Shown: piece by piece, positions 18,043 to 27,891 of the stretch
Layout: the number at the start of each line of letters is the position of its first letter
How positions within the stretch are numbered: the first letter of the stretch is position 1
From: Escherichia phage vB_EcoM_G17
Sequence record: MK327931.1
Direction: 5' to 3' (one strand)
Length of the DNA stretch: 64,000 nucleotides
Made by a program: the position numbers and the translations under genes
Notes under the pieces: model-generated
Databases searched by the model: none
The model's input: the letters and a program-made list of their open reading frames with translations, nothing else
Told to the model about the DNA's origin: nothing

Positions 18043-19158
18043 ATGACAATTTCATTTAATGGTTCATGTAATAACTCCGGCATCAAAAGTCTAGTTATTA
18101 ATGGTGCTGGGCATTTAATTGTAACCTATGCAGATAACACAATTCAAGATTTAGGTCTTGTTGTAGGACAGAATGGCGAGAATGGTAAAAACTTTTATCC
18201 TAATGAGATTGGTTTTGAAATTCCTTCCGAACAATTTAAAGTTGGTGAACCACTTGGGTGGTGCTACTTAAGCTTGGCTAACAATACCAGTACTCTATAC
18301 TTTAAATCAAATGATGCACAAGATCCGACAAGTACATGGATTAGTGTTGAGTTTGGTAAAGGTGATACGGGTGAAGCGGGTAAGCCGTTCCACATTGATA
18401 GTGCTGGAACTACTTTCCCAACAACTGGTCTTTTTAATAACTATACATTTTATAATACTCAAGATGGTAAACTTTATTTCTATCAAAGTGTAACTGCTAC
18501 TTGGAGTGATGGTATACCTTTCCGTGGTGAACAAGGTCCGCGTGGTCGTTTCCATATTGATAGCAGTGGTGATCAATTTCCAAGTATTGAAAATCTTCCA
18601 GTTGATTATTGTTTTTATAACAACACTGATGGAAAACTATATTATGTTGATGAAGTAACTACAACTACCCCTCCTTCAAAAGAGTGGAGTGATGGTATTC
18701 TATTCCGTGGTAAAGAAGGTCAGCAAGGTATTCAAGGTATACAAGGCGAACCAGGTGCACCAGGTAAAGATACAATTTCTATTAGAAATACCATAGATAG
18801 CTCATGGACTAACGCACTATTAGTTATTGGTACATGTCCTGCTGGATATGTAGTTTCTAATATTGATGTAAACGTTATACAACCTTATTCTCTTCCAGTA
18901 ACTGATATGTTTGTACGTTTTGGTGGTGAAGCACAAGAAGATATTGGCGGGACGGTAATTGCACCAACTTCCTACTTTGATATCAATCGTCAGATGCGTT
19001 TTATTGTTAATGAAACTAATCATGCAGCATCCGATGATGATGAAATTATTTCATGTGTATTCAACGATTCTGTTAACAACAGTCCTTATGGAAAAATGGA
19101 AATTATTTGTACTCTTTCATGGCAAGCTCCTATCCAACCGATTCAAGATAATATTTAA
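18043..19158 (+). CDS. Collagen-like repeat-containing fibre protein
   Basis: G-x-x triplet run FRGKEGQQGIQGIQGEPGAPGKD; two internal ~60-aa repeats (HIDS.G..FP...DGKLY.Y); AGGGAA SD before ATG at 18043 (track start 18007 is TTG). Confidence 0.65.
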   Translation: MTISFNGSCNNSGIKSLVINGAGHLIVTYADNTIQDLGLVVGQNGENGKNFYPNEIGFEIPSEQFKVGEPLGWCYLSLANNTSTLYFKSNDAQDPTSTWISVEFGKGDTGEAGKPFHIDSAGTTFPTTGLFNNYTFYNTQDGKLYFYQSVTATWSDGIPFRGEQGPRGRFHIDSSGDQFPSIENLPVDYCFYNNTDGKLYYVDEVTTTTPPSKEWSDGILFRGKEGQQGIQGIQGEPGAPGKDTISIRNTIDSSWTNALLVIGTCPAGYVVSNIDVNVIQPYSLPVTDMFVRFGGEAQEDIGGTVIAPTSYFDINRQMRFIVNETNHAASDDDEIISCVFNDSVNNSPYGKMEIICTLSWQAPIQPIQDNI

Positions 19159-19172
19159 GGGAGGATGTCATA

Positions 19173-21314
19173 ATGGCAGTATTTTCTAATTTTGAAGGAA
19201 CTATGCAGCCCAAATTCATATTGGGGAAAAAAGGTGCTTCAATAAATTTTATCAATGATTCAGTTTCTATAAAAGATTATCTAGGAGAACAGTTCCTACC
19301 ACTGAAGGTAGGAACTTCATCTGACCCTAATTCAGCAGTTAACGTAAAATATCTTGAAGATAACCCTAATGCATTATTTGGTGTTGTACCCCCTACCGAT
19401 GATGTAGGAAAGAACAATAATACGTATTTTCAAATTGATGAAGATGGTATTGTTGATATTTTTGCAAAAAGTAATGGTACATGGGTAAAATCATTATACA
19501 TTAATAAAAAAGTTCTATCCAGTAAAAATGGTGGCGATTTCATCGGACTTATTACTGGAGGTACAGTTCAACAGGCCCAGTTTTATATAACACCAGAAGA
19601 ATTTGGTGCTAAAGGTGATGGCGAAACTGATGACACTGCTGCTGTAAATTTATGTGCTGCTTATGCTAAAGAAAATAAAATCCAAATTCAGGCTGGTGGT
19701 AATTACCGTATCAAAACTGCAATATACCTAGAAGATGTAACTTGGTTTGGGGGAACTATTACTGGTAACGGTGGTACTATGGTATCTGTTATTAATTCCC
19801 AAATACAATTTGCAACACTTACTGGATGTTATTTAAAATTCTTCGGTGGCGATGGTAAGTTTTATTTTAATAAATTTATAAACATCACAAGTACTGCTGC
19901 ATTTTTAATGCAAGGTATGACACAACCAGGAACAATAGATTTTTGCTTTAATGAAATGACCCAATGTAAGTATGGTGTTCTTCAACAAGGTACTGGTGAG
20001 AAAATGAAGGTTGGTAGATATTCATATAACCATATTCATGATATCTATGGTGATGCAATTGAACTAAACGTAATTAACTCACATTATCCTGATGGTTTTG
20101 TGATTGAAGGAAACGTAATTGAAAACGTTGATGGTTCTAACGCTCCAATCCCACTTTCAAACTGGGGCATTGGTATTGGCGTTGCTGGTTCTGGTCCTTA
20201 TGGTTTAGATGCACCAGATACACAATATGTCAGAAACTTTGTTATTAAAAATAACAGACTATATAATGTTAGACAATGTATACACGTTGAATTAGGAATG
20301 GACTTTAAAATACTTAATAATGAAGTTTATCCATCATCTTTAGTTTCTGTTGGTACTGGATTAACCACTGCTGGTGTTATAACTTATGGTTCGAAAGAAT
20401 TCATTATTGATGGGTTGACTGGTCATTTGCTTAATGATCCTTCTATCACAAATAGAATGGTTTCAATAAACTGGGGTGTAACTTCTGGTCGTTTTGCTGG
20501 ACCACCTAGAAACTTTAAAATTTCTAATCTCTATATTCCAGAGTCTTCTATACTTGTTTATACTTCCGGTTCTGATAATTGGTTAAATAATACAGAATTG
20601 AGCAATATCACTTGTTCTAAAATCCTTTGGCGTGGTTTGCCATCATCATCTAAATTTAGTGATATTAGAACTAAAGAATTAGATGTAATTGGTCAACACC
20701 TCTCTACCGAAGGCGAAGGTGGTGGTATCTATACTCGCTCTAAATATACTTATACTAATTGGACTAACTGTGTTGTTCAAGATGATTGTAATGTTTCAAA
20801 ATATAGTTTTTCTAAAATGTATGTAGACAGAATAGACCAATCATCTAATAACTTTAAAGTTACAACTGCAATCGATGGTACAGGTCACCGTGGCCCAGTA
20901 CTGATACCTGTAGTTGAGCAATATTATATTCCATACGATACTTTTCCTGGGGGACGCTATTTCTCTGAAGGCACGATTATTCATAAACAATCGGGTGGAA
21001 AATATATTGTAACTGTTGGTGGTTCTTTTTTCGGAAAATATGACACAATTAGACAAACGGTAGCAGGACAAACATACATAGAAGCATTGGGTGTGTCATG
21101 GGGTGAAAACCAATATGCAAAAGCTGCTGGTACTGAGATCATTATATCCGGTGCTGGTGAAAATGGTGGTGATTTGAGAACGTATATAACTCGTGCAGTG
21201 TATGTTGTAAACAACGTATATAGAATTGATATTGCAGATCCTATCATAACAGCAACTGCCGCTGGTGCAGCATTAAAAGCTGCCCAACCCGTAACTTACA
21301 TAACCCTACCATAA
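19173..21314 (+). CDS. Tail fibre/spike protein with beta-helix-like central region (possible depolymerase)
   Basis: N-terminal ~25 aa nearly identical to the next gene; central region rich in short N/G/I/V-containing strands typical of parallel beta-helix folds; GGAGGA SD. Confidence 0.6.
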   Translation: MAVFSNFEGTMQPKFILGKKGASINFINDSVSIKDYLGEQFLPLKVGTSSDPNSAVNVKYLEDNPNALFGVVPPTDDVGKNNNTYFQIDEDGIVDIFAKSNGTWVKSLYINKKVLSSKNGGDFIGLITGGTVQQAQFYITPEEFGAKGDGETDDTAAVNLCAAYAKENKIQIQAGGNYRIKTAIYLEDVTWFGGTITGNGGTMVSVINSQIQFATLTGCYLKFFGGDGKFYFNKFINITSTAAFLMQGMTQPGTIDFCFNEMTQCKYGVLQQGTGEKMKVGRYSYNHIHDIYGDAIELNVINSHYPDGFVIEGNVIENVDGSNAPIPLSNWGIGIGVAGSGPYGLDAPDTQYVRNFVIKNNRLYNVRQCIHVELGMDFKILNNEVYPSSLVSVGTGLTTAGVITYGSKEFIIDGLTGHLLNDPSITNRMVSINWGVTSGRFAGPPRNFKISNLYIPESSILVYTSGSDNWLNNTELSNITCSKILWRGLPSSSKFSDIRTKELDVIGQHLSTEGEGGGIYTRSKYTYTNWTNCVVQDDCNVSKYSFSKMYVDRIDQSSNNFKVTTAIDGTGHRGPVLIPVVEQYYIPYDTFPGGRYFSEGTIIHKQSGGKYIVTVGGSFFGKYDTIRQTVAGQTYIEALGVSWGENQYAKAAGTEIIISGAGENGGDLRTYITRAVYVVNNVYRIDIADPIITATAAGAALKAAQPVTYITLP

Positions 21315-21330
21315 AGGAGATTATATTAAA

Positions 21331-22227
21331 ATGGCAGTTTTTTCTAATTTAGAAGGAACCATGAAGAAGTCCTTCATTCTTGGGAAGAATGGTGCACAGA
21401 TTACCACAAATGGTAGTGTTGTGCAAATTCAAAACTACTCAGGAACACAACTTCTTCCAATTTCAGCAGGTGAACCAACTGCAAACACACACTTGGTTAC
21501 ATTGGGATATTTAAACGCACACAGTGGTGGTGGTAGTTCTGGTATCTTACGTGGAACAACAGCACCATCCGATTCGATCGGTCTAGATGGTGACGTTTAC
21601 TTTTTGGTTGATAGTACTAATGTTCTTCAAATTTATATTAAAGATCTTGGTATTTGGAAACCATTTAAAGGTAGCTCACCTGGGACTGATAGCTCATATG
21701 TAACTACTGAAATAGTTCCTGTTTCTGCATTTACATTAGTGCCAGATACTACTGATCATTATACTTACACACTACCAGAATCAGTTCATGGTAGAGGTTC
21801 TGATATTATGATCCAACTACAAGGTGACCCAGGTAATGTTGCATTGGAATCAGTATTCCAAACCACAGTAACAGTTAGTGGTATTGGGGATATAACAATT
21901 GATGTGATTGGTCAAATCACAGATTATGCAAGTGTTAAAGTAAACATTATAGGAGCAACAACAATGACAGTACCTTATAGTAAATTGGTAAACCAAGCAG
22001 ATTGGGTTTCTAGTGATGGTGATTTTACAATCACTATTCCTGCATCTGAACACAATCAAACACCAGATAATTTGTATATTTCAATTTATGCAAATAAAAC
22101 ACCTGGGAGTGTTTCGTCATCTCCATTTGAATTGGTAGTGACTGATACACAAATTAGTAGTACTGGTGATGTAATCTTCACTTCTGATATTTCTTTCAGT
22201 GGTAAGATTGTCATCTCTGGTAAGTAA
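21331..22227 (+). CDS. Tail fibre protein (short), sharing N-terminal module with 19173-21314
   Basis: MAVFSNLEGTMKKSFILGKNGA versus MAVFSNFEGTMQPKFILGKKGA in the preceding gene; AAGGAG SD. Confidence 0.6.
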   Translation: MAVFSNLEGTMKKSFILGKNGAQITTNGSVVQIQNYSGTQLLPISAGEPTANTHLVTLGYLNAHSGGGSSGILRGTTAPSDSIGLDGDVYFLVDSTNVLQIYIKDLGIWKPFKGSSPGTDSSYVTTEIVPVSAFTLVPDTTDHYTYTLPESVHGRGSDIMIQLQGDPGNVALESVFQTTVTVSGIGDITIDVIGQITDYASVKVNIIGATTMTVPYSKLVNQADWVSSDGDFTITIPASEHNQTPDNLYISIYANKTPGSVSSSPFELVVTDTQISSTGDVIFTSDISFSGKIVISGK

Positions 22228-22235
22228 AAAAAATT

Positions 22236-22270
22236 AACCAGACTTGTTCTAAATAAGTCTGGTTTTTATT
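22236..22270 (+). terminator. Intrinsic terminator
   Basis: 9-bp stem ACCAGACTT/AAGTCTGGT with 9-nt loop, followed by TTTTTATTAT. Confidence 0.6.
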
Positions 22271-22365
22271 ATATTTGCTTTTGTCAAATAACATATTAAT
22301 TGTTGGATAACAGCATAATAAAACTAAATATATACATATTAACAAGGTTATAATGGAGGGTATAA

Positions 22366-25300
22366 ATGTACTCAATAAAAACTGACTTAGATATTACTGG
22401 TGCTGGTACGGTTGGTAAGGATCTTTTAGTCAAAGGAAATGCTGTTTTCAACAATAACCTAACTGTAAATGGTACTGTAACTTTTGCAAATGCAACTTTT
22501 ACTGCCATTGAATCATCAACTGCCAACATTACATCTACTTTAGATGTAGGTGGCAAAGCAACACTTTCTGGTGGTCTTGGTGTTGAGGGTAATACTACAA
22601 TCGGTAGTGCAGTTGTCGGGTCTGATACAGCAACAATTAATTCAAACGCTACCTTTAACGGTACTGTATCAGTTGGTTCTGATTTTACACAAACTGCTGG
22701 TACAACCACTCTACAAGCAACTAAAGTTAAAAACTTAGAAGTTGCTGAAACAACAGCATTTAAAGGTAATATTACTGCTGATGTTGGGACTACTGCTGCA
22801 TTTGATAAAATTACTGCTAATACCGCAGAAATTACTAATGTAAGTACAACAGATATTAGTAGTACTGGTACTGCTACATTTAACGATGTGACAATTAGTG
22901 GTACACTTGGTGGTGAGTTTAATCTATCTGACTTAAATGCAGTAACATTGAACGTTACTGGTGCATCTAACCAACAAGGTGCAGTAACTTTCGGTGCTAA
23001 CGTAACTGGTATTAACAGTACTGCTACTTTTAAAGACATTCGTATTGGTTCTAACTCTGAATCACAAACCTTCAGATTAAGCTTCCCTTACACTGCTCCT
23101 GGTAAACGCCCAACTGTTATTCTACAAAACGAAATTCAGTCCGAGCTAATGTCACCTGCAAACTTGACAGTATTGACCTCTGCTTCTTTTGGTAATGCGT
23201 CATTATCTTCTTATGGTATTACTGGTAATGGTCTAAACAAATTAGATTATCTAACAGTTTCTGGTAACAATACACAATCACCAGACACACCACTATTAGA
23301 AGTTCAAAAAGGAAAAACTAAAGTTGCTGACTTTGAAGTAACCGGAACTGCAACTATTCCAAATATCGAAAGTACTGGTACTGCTAATTTTAATAACATT
23401 AATGTTTCTGGTCTTCTTGGTGGAACGTTCCAACTAGACGATATTAATGCAGTATCTTTGAACGTTACTGGTGTAACTTCATTAGTTGGTGGTGTTACTC
23501 TTGGTTCTAATATTACTGGTTATAACAGTACTGCATCCTTTAAAGCTATCAGCTTAGGTCAAAATAGTCAAGATGCGGCAGTGAAACTAGGTTTTGGATA
23601 TACTGCACCAGGTCAACGCCCAACAGTTATTCTACCTAACGAAGTTCAATCAGAAGTCGTTTCTCCTTCTACATTGAACGTTCTTAAAACAGCAACTTTC
23701 GGTAACGCTTCTCTTTCCACTTATGGTATTACTGGTAACGGTCTAAACAAACTAGATTACCTAACTATTACTGGTAACGAAACACAAGCTCCAGGTACAC
23801 CATTCCTACAAGTTGGTGGTAAAGCAATTCTTAATGATGTTGAATTTACTGGAACAGTAACTGGACTAACTGTTGATGTTAGTGGGCAGGATCTAACACC
23901 TAATTCTGTTGTCGCGGCAGCAAATATTAAAGGTGCAACACTTGAAAGTACTGGTAACACTACCGTGGGTGCTAAACTAACTGTTACTGGTGATATTGCT
24001 GGTACAACTGCAACTCTTTCTGGTGCATTATCCGCTGGTTCAGTAAGTTCTGGTTCTATTACTGGTACAACTTCTGTATCTGCACCAACAATTAGTGCAT
24101 CTACTGAAGTAACGGCCCCTACTATCACTGCGAGTGGAACTGTAAGTGGGCAAACAATTAACGGTACTAATATTAGTGCAACAACTCTGACTGCACCAAC
24201 TATTAGTGGTAATACTAACTTTACAGAAAATGTTGATATTACTGGTAGCTTAACTGTTGGTTCTCTAGACTTGAGCACTACCGATATTAATGCTAAATCA
24301 ATCACTACTACTGCTGGTGCAACTATTGGTGGTGATTTAGTAGTTCAAGGCTCTTTTGATTTATCAGCAGCCGACCTTAATGTTAAATCATTAACTACTT
24401 CTGGTATTGTTAAAAGTAATGATCTTGTTAATGCTAACGTACTTCCAGTACTTAATAGTACTACCATAACGGCAACTACTGTTAATGCTGATGATATAAC
24501 TGTTACCGGATCTGCTAATTTGGGTACAATTTACTCAAGCTCATCTGTTCTAGTTGGGTCAACTTTAACTGTAACTGGTGAAACTACAACTGCATCGTTG
24601 GTTACCCCAACCATTTCAAATGCAAGTGGTGTCACTATTTCCAATAATACAAATGTAACTGGTGACCTAACTGTTACTGGTGCAGTTATTCCAGGCTCTA
24701 TCGATCTAGCAACAACTGATGTTAATGCTAAATCCATTACTACTACTGCTGGTGCAACTATTGGTGGTAACCTAACTGTTAATGGTACAGTAGATCTTAC
24801 TACGGCTGATGTTACTGTCAAATCTTTAACTAGTACTGGTGCAATTGTTAGTAATGAATCCACAATTAGTAGTGTTCTACCTAAACTTCAAAGTACTGAT
24901 GCAACTATTGCAACCCTTGGTTCAACAACTGCAAATATTACTAATTTGAATGTTACTGGTGCATCTACCGTAGCTGACGTAACTTCTTCAGGTAAAGTTA
25001 AAGCAGTTTCTGTAGAAACCCCAACAATTAGTAACGTTGATGGTGTATCTATTTCCAATAATACATCTATTACTGGTGACCTAACAGTTTCTGGTACAGT
25101 AACACCAGGTGCAATTGATTTGAGCACAACTGATGTAAGTGCAAAATCCATTACTACTACCGCTGGAGCAAATATTGGTGGAGATCTTGTTGTTTCTGGT
25201 ACAGTTGATTTAAGTGGTGCTGATGTATCTGTTAAATCTCTAACAAGTACTGGTATTATTACAGTTAGTAGTGCAGAAGGTATCAACGTTCTACCTAAAG

Positions 25301-27891
25301 TTCAAAGTACTGAAGTTACAGTGTCTGCTCTAAATGCAACAAATGCAGTAGTTTCTGGTGATGTTTCAGCAGCAACAGCTTCAATCTCAGGTGCAATTAC
25401 TGGTGGGTCAGCAACACTATCTGGTGTTGGAACTGCTCTAAATGTAACTAATAACGCAACTGTTGGTGGTGTACTTACTGTTGGTTCTATTACTTCAGCG
25501 GCAGAAAATGTATCCATTACTAAAAATACCGCGATTACTGGTAATTTAGCAGTATCTGGAACACTAACTGCGGGTGTTATTGATCTTAGCACAACTGATG
25601 TGTCTGTGAAGACATTAACTTCTCTAGGTGATGCAACCGTTCAAGGTAACTTAACTGTTGATGGTACTATTAACCTAAGTTCTGCAAACATCGTCGGTGT
25701 AACACTAGAAAGTACTGGCTCCACTACCGTAGGTACTGATTTGATACTAACTACTGGTAACATTACAGGTAGTCCATCTATTTCTGGTAACTTAGGTGTA
25801 ACTGGCACTACAACTTTAACTGGTGCAACAACAGTTTCAAATACATTGAATACTGCTGGTAAACTAACAGTTAATGCTGGTGGAATTCAGGTTGTTGCTG
25901 GTGGTATACAAGTTGATTCTGGAACTATTACTGCTTCTAGTGCTAATATTTCTGGTAGCTCAACACTTAATAGTGCTACTGTAACCACTACACTAGGTGT
26001 TACTGGTGCAGCAAGTATGAATGGTGGTTTAACTGCTTCTACATTGGATGTAACAGGTGATAGTACAGTACAAAAACTAACTGTTAAGGGTGTATTTGTT
26101 CCTGAAGGTGGTTTGGACTTATCCGGTGCTGATCTTAGTGTGAATAGCGTAACTGCGGCAACCACATTAAGTGTTACTGGTGCTAGTACTCTAACTGGTG
26201 GTGTTTCCACTTCAACTGTTACTGCATCCGGTAAGGTAACCGCACAAGAACTAAGTACTGGTACATTGGATGTAACCACAAATGGAACTGTTGGTGGAAC
26301 TTTAGGTGTAACTGGTAAAGCAACTGTTGGATCACTAGATTCAGGTGCAATCTCTGCAACATCTGGTACATTTAGTACTACACTAGATGTGACTGGTGCA
26401 GCGACCTTTGGTAATAATGTTAACATTACTGGTACATTAACCCCAGGTGCATTGGATTTAGCTAGTACTGATGTAGTTGCTAACAGTCTTTCTGTAGCTA
26501 CAACTCTACATTCAGATGGCAACGCAACAATTGGTGGCACATTAGGCGTAACTGGTGCAGTATCTGCTCCATCAATCGCTCTTAATGGTGAAGGTGCTGC
26601 GTTAGCAGTTACTAATAACGCAACAATTGGTGGTACATTAGGTGTAACTGGTGCTACAACTTTAGGTTCTCTAACAACCTCTGGTGCAGTTAAAACTGGT
26701 GCTGATGTTATTATCGGTACTAAAATTGGCGATCAACCAGAGACAGTTCAGATTTTCCCTAATACTTACATTGCTGGCTCCTTGCGTGTAGATGGTGGTA
26801 TCAACGCTGATATTGACGTTAGTGGTCAAACAATTGAACCTTATGCAGTTGTTGCGGCGGACACTATTAGTGCAGCGGGTAATATTACTTCTGGTGCAGA
26901 GTTGATTTCCAAATCAGCAACTATTGGTGATGTTGGTTCACAAAACAACAACTTAACAATCAATGGTAACGTAGTTAACAACGGTAACTTTACAGTAACT
27001 GGTCTACTTAACGCAACACTAAACCAAGCAAACTCTGACGTGGCTGTTAAATCATTAACTGCAACCAACAGTGTTGCTGCTGGTACTAGTATTACCGCAG
27101 GTACAAGTATTACTGCAACTGGTCTACTAAAAGGGAACACCCTTGAAGTAACTACTACTGGTTCATTTGGTGGTGCAGTAACAATGTCAAGTGGTGCTAA
27201 CATTACTGGAACCGTTGGAATTACTTCTGGTAACCTAACTGTTGGTGGTGATATTTCTGCAACAGGTACTGCAACCCTAGCAGCAACTTCAGTAACTACC
27301 ATTACTACTTCTGGTGCAGCAACACTTGCTAGTGCATCTGTTACTGGAGCAGCAACAATCGGTGGTACTTTAACTGTTACTGGTTTAATGACTGCAAATG
27401 GTAGTGTTGTTTTAGGTGACGCTGCTGCTGATACATTAACTGTCAATGCAACATCTTCTTTCAAAGAAAATGCAGTATTTGATAAAGATGTAACTGTAAC
27501 TGGTCAATTAACAACTACTAATGCTGACCTAACTACTACAACAGTAACTACTAAAAAATATGATGTTATTCCTAATCAAGTAACTTCTTCTGTTATCGCA
27601 CCAACTGGTACTTGGACCCCAGACGGTACTAGCAACGTATACTTTATCACTCTAGATCAAGATACCACTCTAGCACCAATCACTGGTCTAATCGGTGGTG
27701 GTAAAGCATCTTCAGTATACATTTATGTGAAACAAGATGCAACAGGTAATAGAAACTTTACTACTGATGGTACTTATGCGGTTGTTGATGGCACACTGAA
27801 CAAAACTGCAAACTCTGTAACTATCTACCAAGTCATTTATGACGGTGTGAGTCCAGTAACAGATATGTTTATTGCACAACGTACTGCTTAA
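22366..27891 (+). CDS. Long repetitive tail fibre protein (1841 aa)
   Basis: GGAGGG SD; T/S/G/N/V-rich with two families of long tandem repeats; antisense ORFs on the track inside it are composition artefacts. Confidence 0.75.
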   Translation: MYSIKTDLDITGAGTVGKDLLVKGNAVFNNNLTVNGTVTFANATFTAIESSTANITSTLDVGGKATLSGGLGVEGNTTIGSAVVGSDTATINSNATFNGTVSVGSDFTQTAGTTTLQATKVKNLEVAETTAFKGNITADVGTTAAFDKITANTAEITNVSTTDISSTGTATFNDVTISGTLGGEFNLSDLNAVTLNVTGASNQQGAVTFGANVTGINSTATFKDIRIGSNSESQTFRLSFPYTAPGKRPTVILQNEIQSELMSPANLTVLTSASFGNASLSSYGITGNGLNKLDYLTVSGNNTQSPDTPLLEVQKGKTKVADFEVTGTATIPNIESTGTANFNNINVSGLLGGTFQLDDINAVSLNVTGVTSLVGGVTLGSNITGYNSTASFKAISLGQNSQDAAVKLGFGYTAPGQRPTVILPNEVQSEVVSPSTLNVLKTATFGNASLSTYGITGNGLNKLDYLTITGNETQAPGTPFLQVGGKAILNDVEFTGTVTGLTVDVSGQDLTPNSVVAAANIKGATLESTGNTTVGAKLTVTGDIAGTTATLSGALSAGSVSSGSITGTTSVSAPTISASTEVTAPTITASGTVSGQTINGTNISATTLTAPTISGNTNFTENVDITGSLTVGSLDLSTTDINAKSITTTAGATIGGDLVVQGSFDLSAADLNVKSLTTSGIVKSNDLVNANVLPVLNSTTITATTVNADDITVTGSANLGTIYSSSSVLVGSTLTVTGETTTASLVTPTISNASGVTISNNTNVTGDLTVTGAVIPGSIDLATTDVNAKSITTTAGATIGGNLTVNGTVDLTTADVTVKSLTSTGAIVSNESTISSVLPKLQSTDATIATLGSTTANITNLNVTGASTVADVTSSGKVKAVSVETPTISNVDGVSISNNTSITGDLTVSGTVTPGAIDLSTTDVSAKSITTTAGANIGGDLVVSGTVDLSGADVSVKSLTSTGIITVSSAEGINVLPKVQSTEVTVSALNATNAVVSGDVSAATASISGAITGGSATLSGVGTALNVTNNATVGGVLTVGSITSAAENVSITKNTAITGNLAVSGTLTAGVIDLSTTDVSVKTLTSLGDATVQGNLTVDGTINLSSANIVGVTLESTGSTTVGTDLILTTGNITGSPSISGNLGVTGTTTLTGATTVSNTLNTAGKLTVNAGGIQVVAGGIQVDSGTITASSANISGSSTLNSATVTTTLGVTGAASMNGGLTASTLDVTGDSTVQKLTVKGVFVPEGGLDLSGADLSVNSVTAATTLSVTGASTLTGGVSTSTVTASGKVTAQELSTGTLDVTTNGTVGGTLGVTGKATVGSLDSGAISATSGTFSTTLDVTGAATFGNNVNITGTLTPGALDLASTDVVANSLSVATTLHSDGNATIGGTLGVTGAVSAPSIALNGEGAALAVTNNATIGGTLGVTGATTLGSLTTSGAVKTGADVIIGTKIGDQPETVQIFPNTYIAGSLRVDGGINADIDVSGQTIEPYAVVAADTISAAGNITSGAELISKSATIGDVGSQNNNLTINGNVVNNGNFTVTGLLNATLNQANSDVAVKSLTATNSVAAGTSITAGTSITATGLLKGNTLEVTTTGSFGGAVTMSSGANITGTVGITSGNLTVGGDISATGTATLAATSVTTITTSGAATLASASVTGAATIGGTLTVTGLMTANGSVVLGDAAADTLTVNATSSFKENAVFDKDVTVTGQLTTTNADLTTTTVTTKKYDVIPNQVTSSVIAPTGTWTPDGTSNVYFITLDQDTTLAPITGLIGGGKASSVYIYVKQDATGNRNFTTDGTYAVVDGTLNKTANSVTIYQVIYDGVSPVTDMFIAQRTA
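22870..23900 (+). repeat. Intragenic tandem repeat, about two copies of a ~515-nt (~170-aa) unit
   Basis: Protein segments LGG.F.L.D.NAV.LNVTG...PG.RPTVIL.NE.QSE..SP..L.VL..A.FGNASLS.YGITGNGLNKLDYLT occur twice in tandem. Confidence 0.7.
24230..25630 (+). repeat. Intragenic tandem repeat, about 3.3 copies of a ~420-nt (~140-aa) unit
   Basis: Segments [LI]DL.TTD[IV].AKSITTTAGA.IGG.L.V.G..DL..AD..VKSLT.TG recur at about 24260, 24700, 25110 and partially 25575. Confidence 0.7.

Follow-up and report, generated by a model that had tools for sequence, protein, structure and literature searches.

Homologous N-terminal modules of about 110 residues in two neighbouring tail genes of an Asteriusvirus

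The DNA considered here is a stretch of 64,000 nucleotides (nt) from Escherichia phage vB_EcoM_G17 (sequence record MK327931.1), called "the window" throughout, in which two genes lie side by side on the plus strand: gene A (19173-21314, 713 amino acids, hereafter aa) and gene B (21331-22227, 298 aa). A first-pass annotation of the letters alone had delimited both correctly and had noticed that they begin in nearly the same way. These genes probably encode two tail proteins with a common N-terminal attachment or assembly module of some 110 residues, mounted in one case on a colanic acid-degrading body and in the other on a conserved structural protein. Over the 5 kb around them the window matches Escherichia phage Sharanji at 100% identity and phages 121Q and PBECO4 at 99.8-99.9%, and thus belongs to Asteriusvirus (Sharanji/121Q/PBECO4), a genus of RaK2-like jumbo myoviruses with genomes of about 350 kb. 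In 121Q, gene A is named gp573 ("colanic acid degradation") and gene B gp572 ("virion structural protein").

The resemblance at the very start of the two genes is genuine. When A and B are aligned, the first 25 codons agree at 18 of 25 residues and 53 of 75 nt, in keeping with the pattern MAVFSN[FL]EGTM...FILGK.GA that had been pointed out, and the first 22 codons at 17/22 residues and 50/66 nt; in DNA terms the high-identity stretch is only about 33 nt long, 30 of the first 33 nt being identical. The annotation was mistaken, however, in having all similarity end after about 25 codons. BLASTP aligns A with B at E=2e-19, and a tblastn search of the whole window with either N-terminus returns the other gene alone (E about 1e-20, 37.6% identity over 109 aa), the next match having an E-value of 0.65. 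Identity falls from 77% in the first 22 residues to about 26%, a level that lasts to about residue 109, and several landmarks past residue 25 are kept in both proteins (LxP, P49, V56, Y60 and G..P....G...Y....I..K..G.W). The structure prediction that the first-pass annotation had proposed as a check agrees: AlphaFold2 models, made as monomers only, place the same secondary-structure elements in the same order in both N-terminal parts, first three short strands (14-35), then a helix (about 58-64) and last four strands (about 67-111); the average predicted local distance difference test score (pLDDT) is 84 for B and 74.5 for residues 1-135 of A. What A and B have in common is thus a module of about 110 residues and not a peptide of 25, and the two proteins are unrelated only beyond about residue 110. 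There is no third copy in the window: a hidden Markov model (HMM) run over all six frames matches A and B only, at E-values of 2.4e-31 and 1.2e-37 for the model of the first sub-domain.

This sub-domain came to light in database searches. A word-indexed protein search with the 115-aa module returned one protein only, and a profile search was used instead; against 1.84 billion representative proteins it gave 392 matches at E up to 1e-3, which divide the module into residues 1-65 and residues 66-110. The first part opens with the near-invariant peptide MAVFSNLEGTMKKxFILGKNGA, of which M1, A2, F4, S5, N6, G9, T10, G18, K19 and G21 are invariant among 73 aligned sequences, L7, E8, M11, K12 and F15 being at least 90% conserved. 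In other proteins, module positions 1-67 are found solely at N-termini. The carriers include P0100 (780 aa, with a beta-helix and a Peptidase_S74 chaperone), P0105 (705 aa, Beta_helix), six proteins of 1200-1366 aa with BNR propellers (P0117, P0135, P0148, P0165, P0208 and P0209) and a further three of about 290 aa. The genes of P0100 and P0105 are four genes apart on one 120-kb contig of an uncultured phage (Logan SRR18476386_53; L012, 8001-10343 and 16571-18343), a second case of one phage with two tailspikes having this N-terminus in common. A few other genes of this contig weakly resemble genes of the window, and the phage may be a distant relative of the RaK2-like phages. Among cultured phages, sub-domain 1 is restricted to RaK2-like jumbo phages, bar a weak match in Salicola phage SCTP-2. 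The Pfam entry PF27114 ("Phage_tail_beta") is probably not this shared sub-domain, as it is on record for P0100 and P0105 and absent for P0117, A and B. Cleavage of the prohead-protease type between NLE and G of the N-terminal peptide was considered as well and dropped: the consensus of the T4 prohead protease needs L or I at P3, and neither is present here.

The second part of the module has a different distribution, its type recurring within collagen-like proteins and fibres, between triple-helix segments. It weakly resembles the trimerisation domains of collagens XV/XVIII, which is a lead only. A fold search of BFVD with the module returned orthologs together with collagen-like and fibre proteins; a profile search of the PDB gave nothing below E 0.4 and no fold was assigned, and Pfam has no family for the module or for gene B, even at E=10. 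The module is an autonomous unit, because two proteins consist of nothing else: the 115-aa ortholog of B in RaK2 (ORF061w/gp061; L002, 9001-9348) and P0079, an unrelated metagenomic protein of 113 aa. The RaK2 papers do not discuss ORF061w, and no paper describing the shared module was found in the literature searched. Ten Alcyoneusvirus records keep the module while both the C-terminal part of B and gp570 are missing. Joint loss of these two was weighed as evidence that they are partners and set aside since it is not strict, Munch-like Salmonella phages keeping the C-terminal domain with no detectable gp570. At the Alcyoneusvirus locus (RaK2, K64-1 and others), orthologs of the giant fibre and of gp570 are missing.

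Which of the two genes carried the module first? A tblastn search with the module over 50,697 phage records finds it at two places in every Asteriusvirus genome and at one place in every other RaK2-like phage, namely RaK2, K64-1, GAP32, CBB, Munch and phages of Erwinia, Yersinia, Serratia and Xanthomonas. In RaK2, CBB and 16 non-Asteriusvirus loci from IMG/VR, the single copy is the ortholog of B, directly after gp574 with nothing between, and the order gp575 (minus strand), gp574, B, giant fibre is conserved in 17 non-Asteriusvirus loci. Gene B is thus the ancestral, clade-wide carrier of the module, given its 73 full-length homologs, the single copy outside Asteriusvirus and the conserved gene order; gene A is an insertion specific to Asteriusvirus, because the 17 other RaK2-like loci have no gene between gp574 and B. 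Several records named "Salmonella phage SD-*" are at least 98% identical to Asteriusviruses of E. coli.

Gene B is assigned to phrog_10468, a family of virion structural proteins, with an E-value of 1.5e-100. Its 73 homologs align with all 298 residues (41-100% identity, 100% coverage) and come from phages of Escherichia, Cronobacter, Yersinia, Erwinia, Salmonella and other hosts. B is a conserved structural protein and not a variable cassette, since mass spectrometry of CBB virions detected its ortholog CBB_227, with 5 peptides and 32% coverage, along with the products of neighbouring genes (PMC5259590). The C-terminal domains are kept across genera and missing from the Alcyoneusvirus (RaK2) ortholog. 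An HMM of the first of them, run on a small set of proteins, weakly matches (E 2e-5 to 4e-3) the C-terminal tips of the 1200-aa fibres headed by the module, which suggests, as a lead only, that B may be a minimal, stubby fibre. With tblastn, the C-terminal domain of B is found at 99 places in 61 records, with one place in Sharanji-like genomes and a second match in BF17, EC.P1, GAP32, PHA46 and Erwinia phages; in BF17, the 35 kb around the locus hold no second copy. The size of B and its position before a "long tail fiber proximal subunit" had also raised the analogy of a socket for long tail fibres like T4 gp9, a candidate that was rejected when the gp9 fold was not recovered in B. Sharanji, BF17, Turkey5 and the Mimasvirus CBB do not differ at any of the first 33 nt of the gene (ATGGCAGTTTTTTCTAATTTAGAAGGAACCATG; 21331-21363), synonymous positions included.

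Gene A is of another kind. It is 100% identical to its counterpart in Sharanji and 99.9% to that of 121Q, belongs to phrog_6117 (E 3e-264) and carries the precomputed Pfam assignment PF27800 WcaM. From residue 96 onwards it is homologous to the tailspike gp150 of phage phi92, whose structure is PDB entry 6E0V: phmmer gives E 1.8e-235 over residues 96-712, and BLASTP gives 57% identity over 617 aa between residues 96-713 of A and 189-804 of gp150, with 4 gap positions. A match to Pect-lyase_RHGA_epim at residues 143-250 lies below the Pfam cut-off. Residues 1 to about 105 of A are unrelated to the 188-residue N-terminus of gp150, and equally to the N-terminus of GAP32 gp128; they are homologous to B instead. 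The colanidase body occurs in 255 phage records behind varied N-termini, among them Justusliebigvirus, Phapecoctavirus, small podoviruses and GAP32 gp128, the last being a case of this body at another locus of a RaK2-like phage. On these comparisons, gene A is a chimera of a RaK2-type N-terminal module and a horizontally shared colanidase body. The public labels of its orthologs ("colanic acid biosynthesis protein", "hypothetical protein", "MutT/NUDIX") do not convey this, the first being a mis-transfer due to the homology of the body with bacterial WcaM. Colanic acid is a general exopolysaccharide of enterobacteria. Hydrolysis of this polymer by phi92 gp150 has been obtained experimentally, according to a 2026 paper on phi92 that cites Xu 2025 (PMC13450770), and on these two grounds the enzyme of gene A would be better read as a means of removing a barrier than as a switch of host range.

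What, then, would the module do? Tailspikes and fibres that have been characterised bind the particle by their N-terminus (PMC10253068), and a docking or assembly module fits best because this unit has an extreme N-terminal position, is invariant, persists as a protein in its own right and is set in a block of tail genes. We suggest that A and B are separately encoded proteins, presumably trimers, attached through the N-terminal module. Residues 1-65, with the 22-residue peptide, would contact a conserved partner in the baseplate or at the base of a fibre, and residues 66-110 would nucleate trimerisation. B would have been the first to occupy a socket of this type. A would have arisen once, in the ancestor of Asteriusvirus, when a copy of the module was joined to a beta-helix of the phi92 gp150 type and inserted between gp574 and B; on the virion, it would clear the layer of colanic acid by digestion and thereby give the fibres access to their receptors. 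The similar 5' ends would then reflect purifying selection on both genes for the same interaction, and not recombination.

Three observations weigh against parts of this scheme. Phage JP4 (L005, 6001-6606) and a contig labelled E. coli (P0001) encode an A of only 201 aa after the loss in frame of 1,536 nt, which removes the whole enzyme body but spares the module and the final 54 residues; as JP4 is a viable lytic phage, the enzymatic part is thus dispensable, at least on the host of JP4. The product of gene A, which we expect on the virion, does not appear in the virion proteomes searched, and the phAPEC6 table has neither A nor B; this last absence is uninformative because both genes are unannotated in the GenBank record, which has no coding sequence for either (L011, MK817115.1, 185866-189071) and whose numbering skips from gp253 to gp256. 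Finally, within Asteriusvirus the module of A evolves faster than its own enzyme body and than the module of B, an unexpected result as A and B would dock on the same conserved site.

A wider version of the docking proposal is tentative, and we would sooner doubt it than assert it. The sub-domain of about 65 residues with its invariant peptide could be a docking system, widespread and so far undescribed, that RaK2-like jumbo phages have in common with uncultured relatives and on which nearly any distal module can be mounted. The cargo may include the colanidase, beta-helix tailspikes, BNR fibres of at least 1200 aa and small Ig-like tips, and proteins made of the module alone, of which RaK2 gp061 may be an example, would plug unused sockets. 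If this were true, the sub-domain would provide a defined handle for re-targeting jumbo phages.

The common module might alternatively serve folding, trimerisation or recognition by a chaperone, A being a soluble or loosely bound depolymerase released at lysis and the N-terminal peptide being read by an assembly factor. This is unlikely, despite the recurrence of sub-domain 2 between triple-helix segments with its faint likeness to collagen XV/XVIII trimerisation domains, the silence of the searched proteomes on A and the low to moderate confidence of the N-terminal residues in the monomer models (pLDDT below 50 for residues 1-7 of B). Sub-domain 1 occurs only at the extreme N-termini of proteins resembling fibres or tailspikes, which is the particle end (PMC10253068), and the B ortholog is present in CBB virions. 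Moreover, RaK2 gp061 and P0079 are maintained with nothing to fold or trimerise, and the genes sit within a block of structural tail genes.

The first-pass annotation had itself favoured another view, in which the similar start is the signature of interchangeable receptor-binding proteins on a common anchor, and a likely hotspot of recombination for switching host range. Part of it survives. A common-anchor architecture is likely for A and B, as the homologous N-terminal module, the chimeric A and the presence of sub-domain 1 on unrelated distal modules in uncultured phages all support an anchor with different distal parts. The interchangeable cassette fails, since B is conserved end to end across genera, and the hotspot as a whole is quite improbable. 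In its favour are the similar 5' DNA noted above, the history of A as a module joined to a foreign enzyme body and the varied cargo of sub-domain 1 in uncultured phages. If segments were being exchanged within genomes, however, A and B should resemble each other more within a phage than between phages. Modules from five diverged Asteriusvirus A/B pairs, RaK2 and CBB were compared pairwise. A-type modules are 57-85% identical to each other, and B-type modules 74-91% within the genus and 55-64% against other genera, whereas every comparison of A with B gives 31-41%, whichever the phage, so that the two types form two clean groups. At protein level, identity between the A and B modules of one phage (35-40%) equals that between phages, and the first 66 nt of A and B share 48-55 positions within a genome against 46-55 between genomes. 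Along the A genes DNA identity shifts gradually, with no mosaic breakpoints. Gene conversion or concerted evolution of the 5' ends can be rejected on this account, and the duplication is at least as old as the genus. The near-identical starts are due to purifying selection, because the start peptide is near-invariant in about 70 orthologs of B across genera.

Nor has the exchange of distal parts left a trace in relatives, where the first-pass annotation had proposed to look for it. No C-terminal swap is seen in the slot in the 50 Asteriusvirus or RaK2-like records and loci examined. In the 32 Asteriusvirus records with both copies, no other body stands beside the module in the A slot, JP4 having the same body deleted, and in the 17 other RaK2-like loci the slot is empty. 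The stretch of nearly identical DNA is short, and variation at the locus is seated in the giant fibre gene downstream. A recombination hotspot for switching host range accordingly finds no support in these 32 records or in the other RaK2-like genomes examined.

A constraint on the nucleic acid rather than on the protein (a translation-initiation region or a regulatory RNA) is very improbable as the cause of the similar first codons: the first 33 nt of B are indeed the same in Sharanji and CBB, of different genera, even at synonymous sites, and A and B alike begin AT-rich behind a strong Shine-Dalgarno site, but the protein homology spans 109 residues with many synonymous and non-synonymous differences, the untranslated regions upstream of A and B differ, distant proteins encode the same peptide by different codons, and GCA, TTT, TCT, AAT, GAA and GGA are the AT-rich choices that would be expected in this genome.

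The context of the two genes is that of an operon: they are closely spaced, each has a strong Shine-Dalgarno site, and a hairpin resembling a terminator stands past B (Table 1). In 121Q, the block of tail genes runs from a T4 gp15-like sheath stabiliser through gp577, gp576 and gp575 on the opposite strand to gp574 ("tail protein"), A, B, gp571, gp570 and gp569. The gene of gp574 opens the gp574-A-B block and, in all RaK2-like lineages that lack A, immediately precedes B, a position supported by synteny across 18 IMG/VR loci; its CBB ortholog, CBB_228, was detected in virions with 13 peptides by mass spectrometry (PMC5259590). The Shine-Dalgarno sequence of gene B overlaps the final base of the stop codon of gene A. 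The hairpin falls ahead of the 137-nt gap between B and the giant fibre gene, and it probably closes the gp574-A-B transcription unit, judging from a consensus scan that found 3 such sites in all against 2.1 expected. The giant fibre gene comes after B in every lineage but Alcyoneusvirus. No other gene of the locus varies as much, with 33-43% identity and lengths of 1425-1841 aa among RaK2-like lineages (1425-1720 aa in those other than that of the window). BF17 has two giant fibre genes (1906 and 1638 aa; L015, 16497-27283) against one in the window.

Table 1. Features of the gp574-A-B locus, in coordinates of the window.
Feature	Position	Strand	Basis or remark
gp574 ortholog ("tail protein"; 371 aa from ATG)	18043..19158	+	phrog_13565, E 2.8e-220; 121Q annotation
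Gene A Shine-Dalgarno sequence, GGGAGGA	19159..19165	+	Read from sequence; strong; 7 nt before ATG
Gene A, chimeric, probable colanidase tailspike (121Q gp573; PBECO4 "colanic acid degrading protein")	19173..21314	+	Open reading frame; homology
A sub-domain 1, aa 1-66: peptide MAVFSNFEGTMQPKFILGKKGA, three-strand beta meander, short helix; putative docking part	19173..19370	+	Sub-domain 1 HMM; AlphaFold2
A sub-domain 2, aa 67-109: four-strand beta unit, motif G..P....G...Y......I..K..G.W; putative trimerisation unit	19371..19499	+	
A neck and right-handed beta-helix colanidase body, aa 96-713	19458..21311	+	Homologous to phi92 gp150 residues 189-804
Segment deleted in frame in JP4 and P0001, aa 152-659	19626..21159	+	Between imperfect repeats GGTGATGGCGAAA and GGTGCTGGTGAAA
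Gene B Shine-Dalgarno sequence, AAGGAG	21314..21319	+	Read from sequence; strong; 11 nt before ATG
Gene B, conserved virion protein (121Q gp572)	21331..22227	+	Open reading frame; phrog_10468; homologs
Gene B N-terminal module, aa 1-109, paralogous to A aa 1-109	21331..21657	+	BLASTP, tblastn, AlphaFold2
B C-terminal part, aa 113-298: two beta-sandwich domains, pLDDT >90	21667..22224	+	
Terminator-like hairpin, 13-bp stem and T-rich tail	22236..22274	+	Consensus scan; directly 3' of B
Giant fibre gene (1841 aa; 121Q gp571 "long tail fiber proximal subunit")	22366..27891	+	Open reading frame and 121Q annotation

The interest of the locus lies in how Asteriusvirus came by a colanic-acid depolymerase, a phi92-type body having been grafted on the attachment module of a conserved tail protein. 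The result also defines a domain of about 110 residues with no Pfam or PDB representative, which marks genes of fibres and tailspikes in RaK2-like phages and in metagenomes. It should help their annotation, many such genes being called "hypothetical" or, wrongly, "colanic acid biosynthesis protein", and the junction at about residue 105-110 suggests itself for engineering. No new mechanism is involved: modular tailspikes with common N-terminal anchors are well established, the anchor design seen here is an ordinary modular one, and nothing shows an active host-range switch.

Among known systems, phi92 gp150 (PDB 6E0V; phrog_6117) is the nearest to A, having the homologous right-handed beta-helix enzyme body and the same plan of an N-terminal particle-binding part, variable between phage lineages, followed by the enzymatic beta-helix. 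It differs in that its N-terminal 188 residues are unrelated to the RaK2-type module and in its virion, that of a 148-kb Justusliebigvirus as against a 350-kb jumbo phage; hydrolysis of colanic acid is reported for gp150 itself in the paper cited above, and that of A is predicted from homology. For B, the known family is phrog_10468 (GAP32 gp221, CBB gp227, 121Q gp572), of which it is a full-length member with conserved synteny, the CBB member being virion-associated; no description of the N-terminal module of this family recurring on colanidases or other fibres was found in the literature searched.

The attachment that we propose for A and B also has parallels in systems with two or more receptor-binding proteins (RBPs). 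In dual-RBP podophages of Klebsiella, RBP2 attaches to RBP1 by way of a conserved peptide at its N-terminus (PMC13352976). The RBP1-RBP2 pairs of KP32, K11 and KP34, TSP1-4 of CBA120 and gp526-534 of RaK2 all carry distal modules on conserved N-terminal elements and are encoded by adjacent genes, the secondary protein having a short and highly conserved N-terminal peptide (PMC13352976, PMC10253068). The differences are that the A/B module has no sequence relative among them, that its carrier B is a conserved core protein and not a variable depolymerase, and that the distal parts of A and B show no cassette exchange among related phages. Membership of the KP32 or CBA120 type is not claimed, because no gp10-like or D1-type domain is recognised in A or B. 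By analogy, the Klebsiella dual-RBP systems and the branched fibres of CBA120 and RaK2 would nonetheless be the closest functional counterparts of A and B: two tail proteins of one phage with a common N-terminal element and different distal parts.

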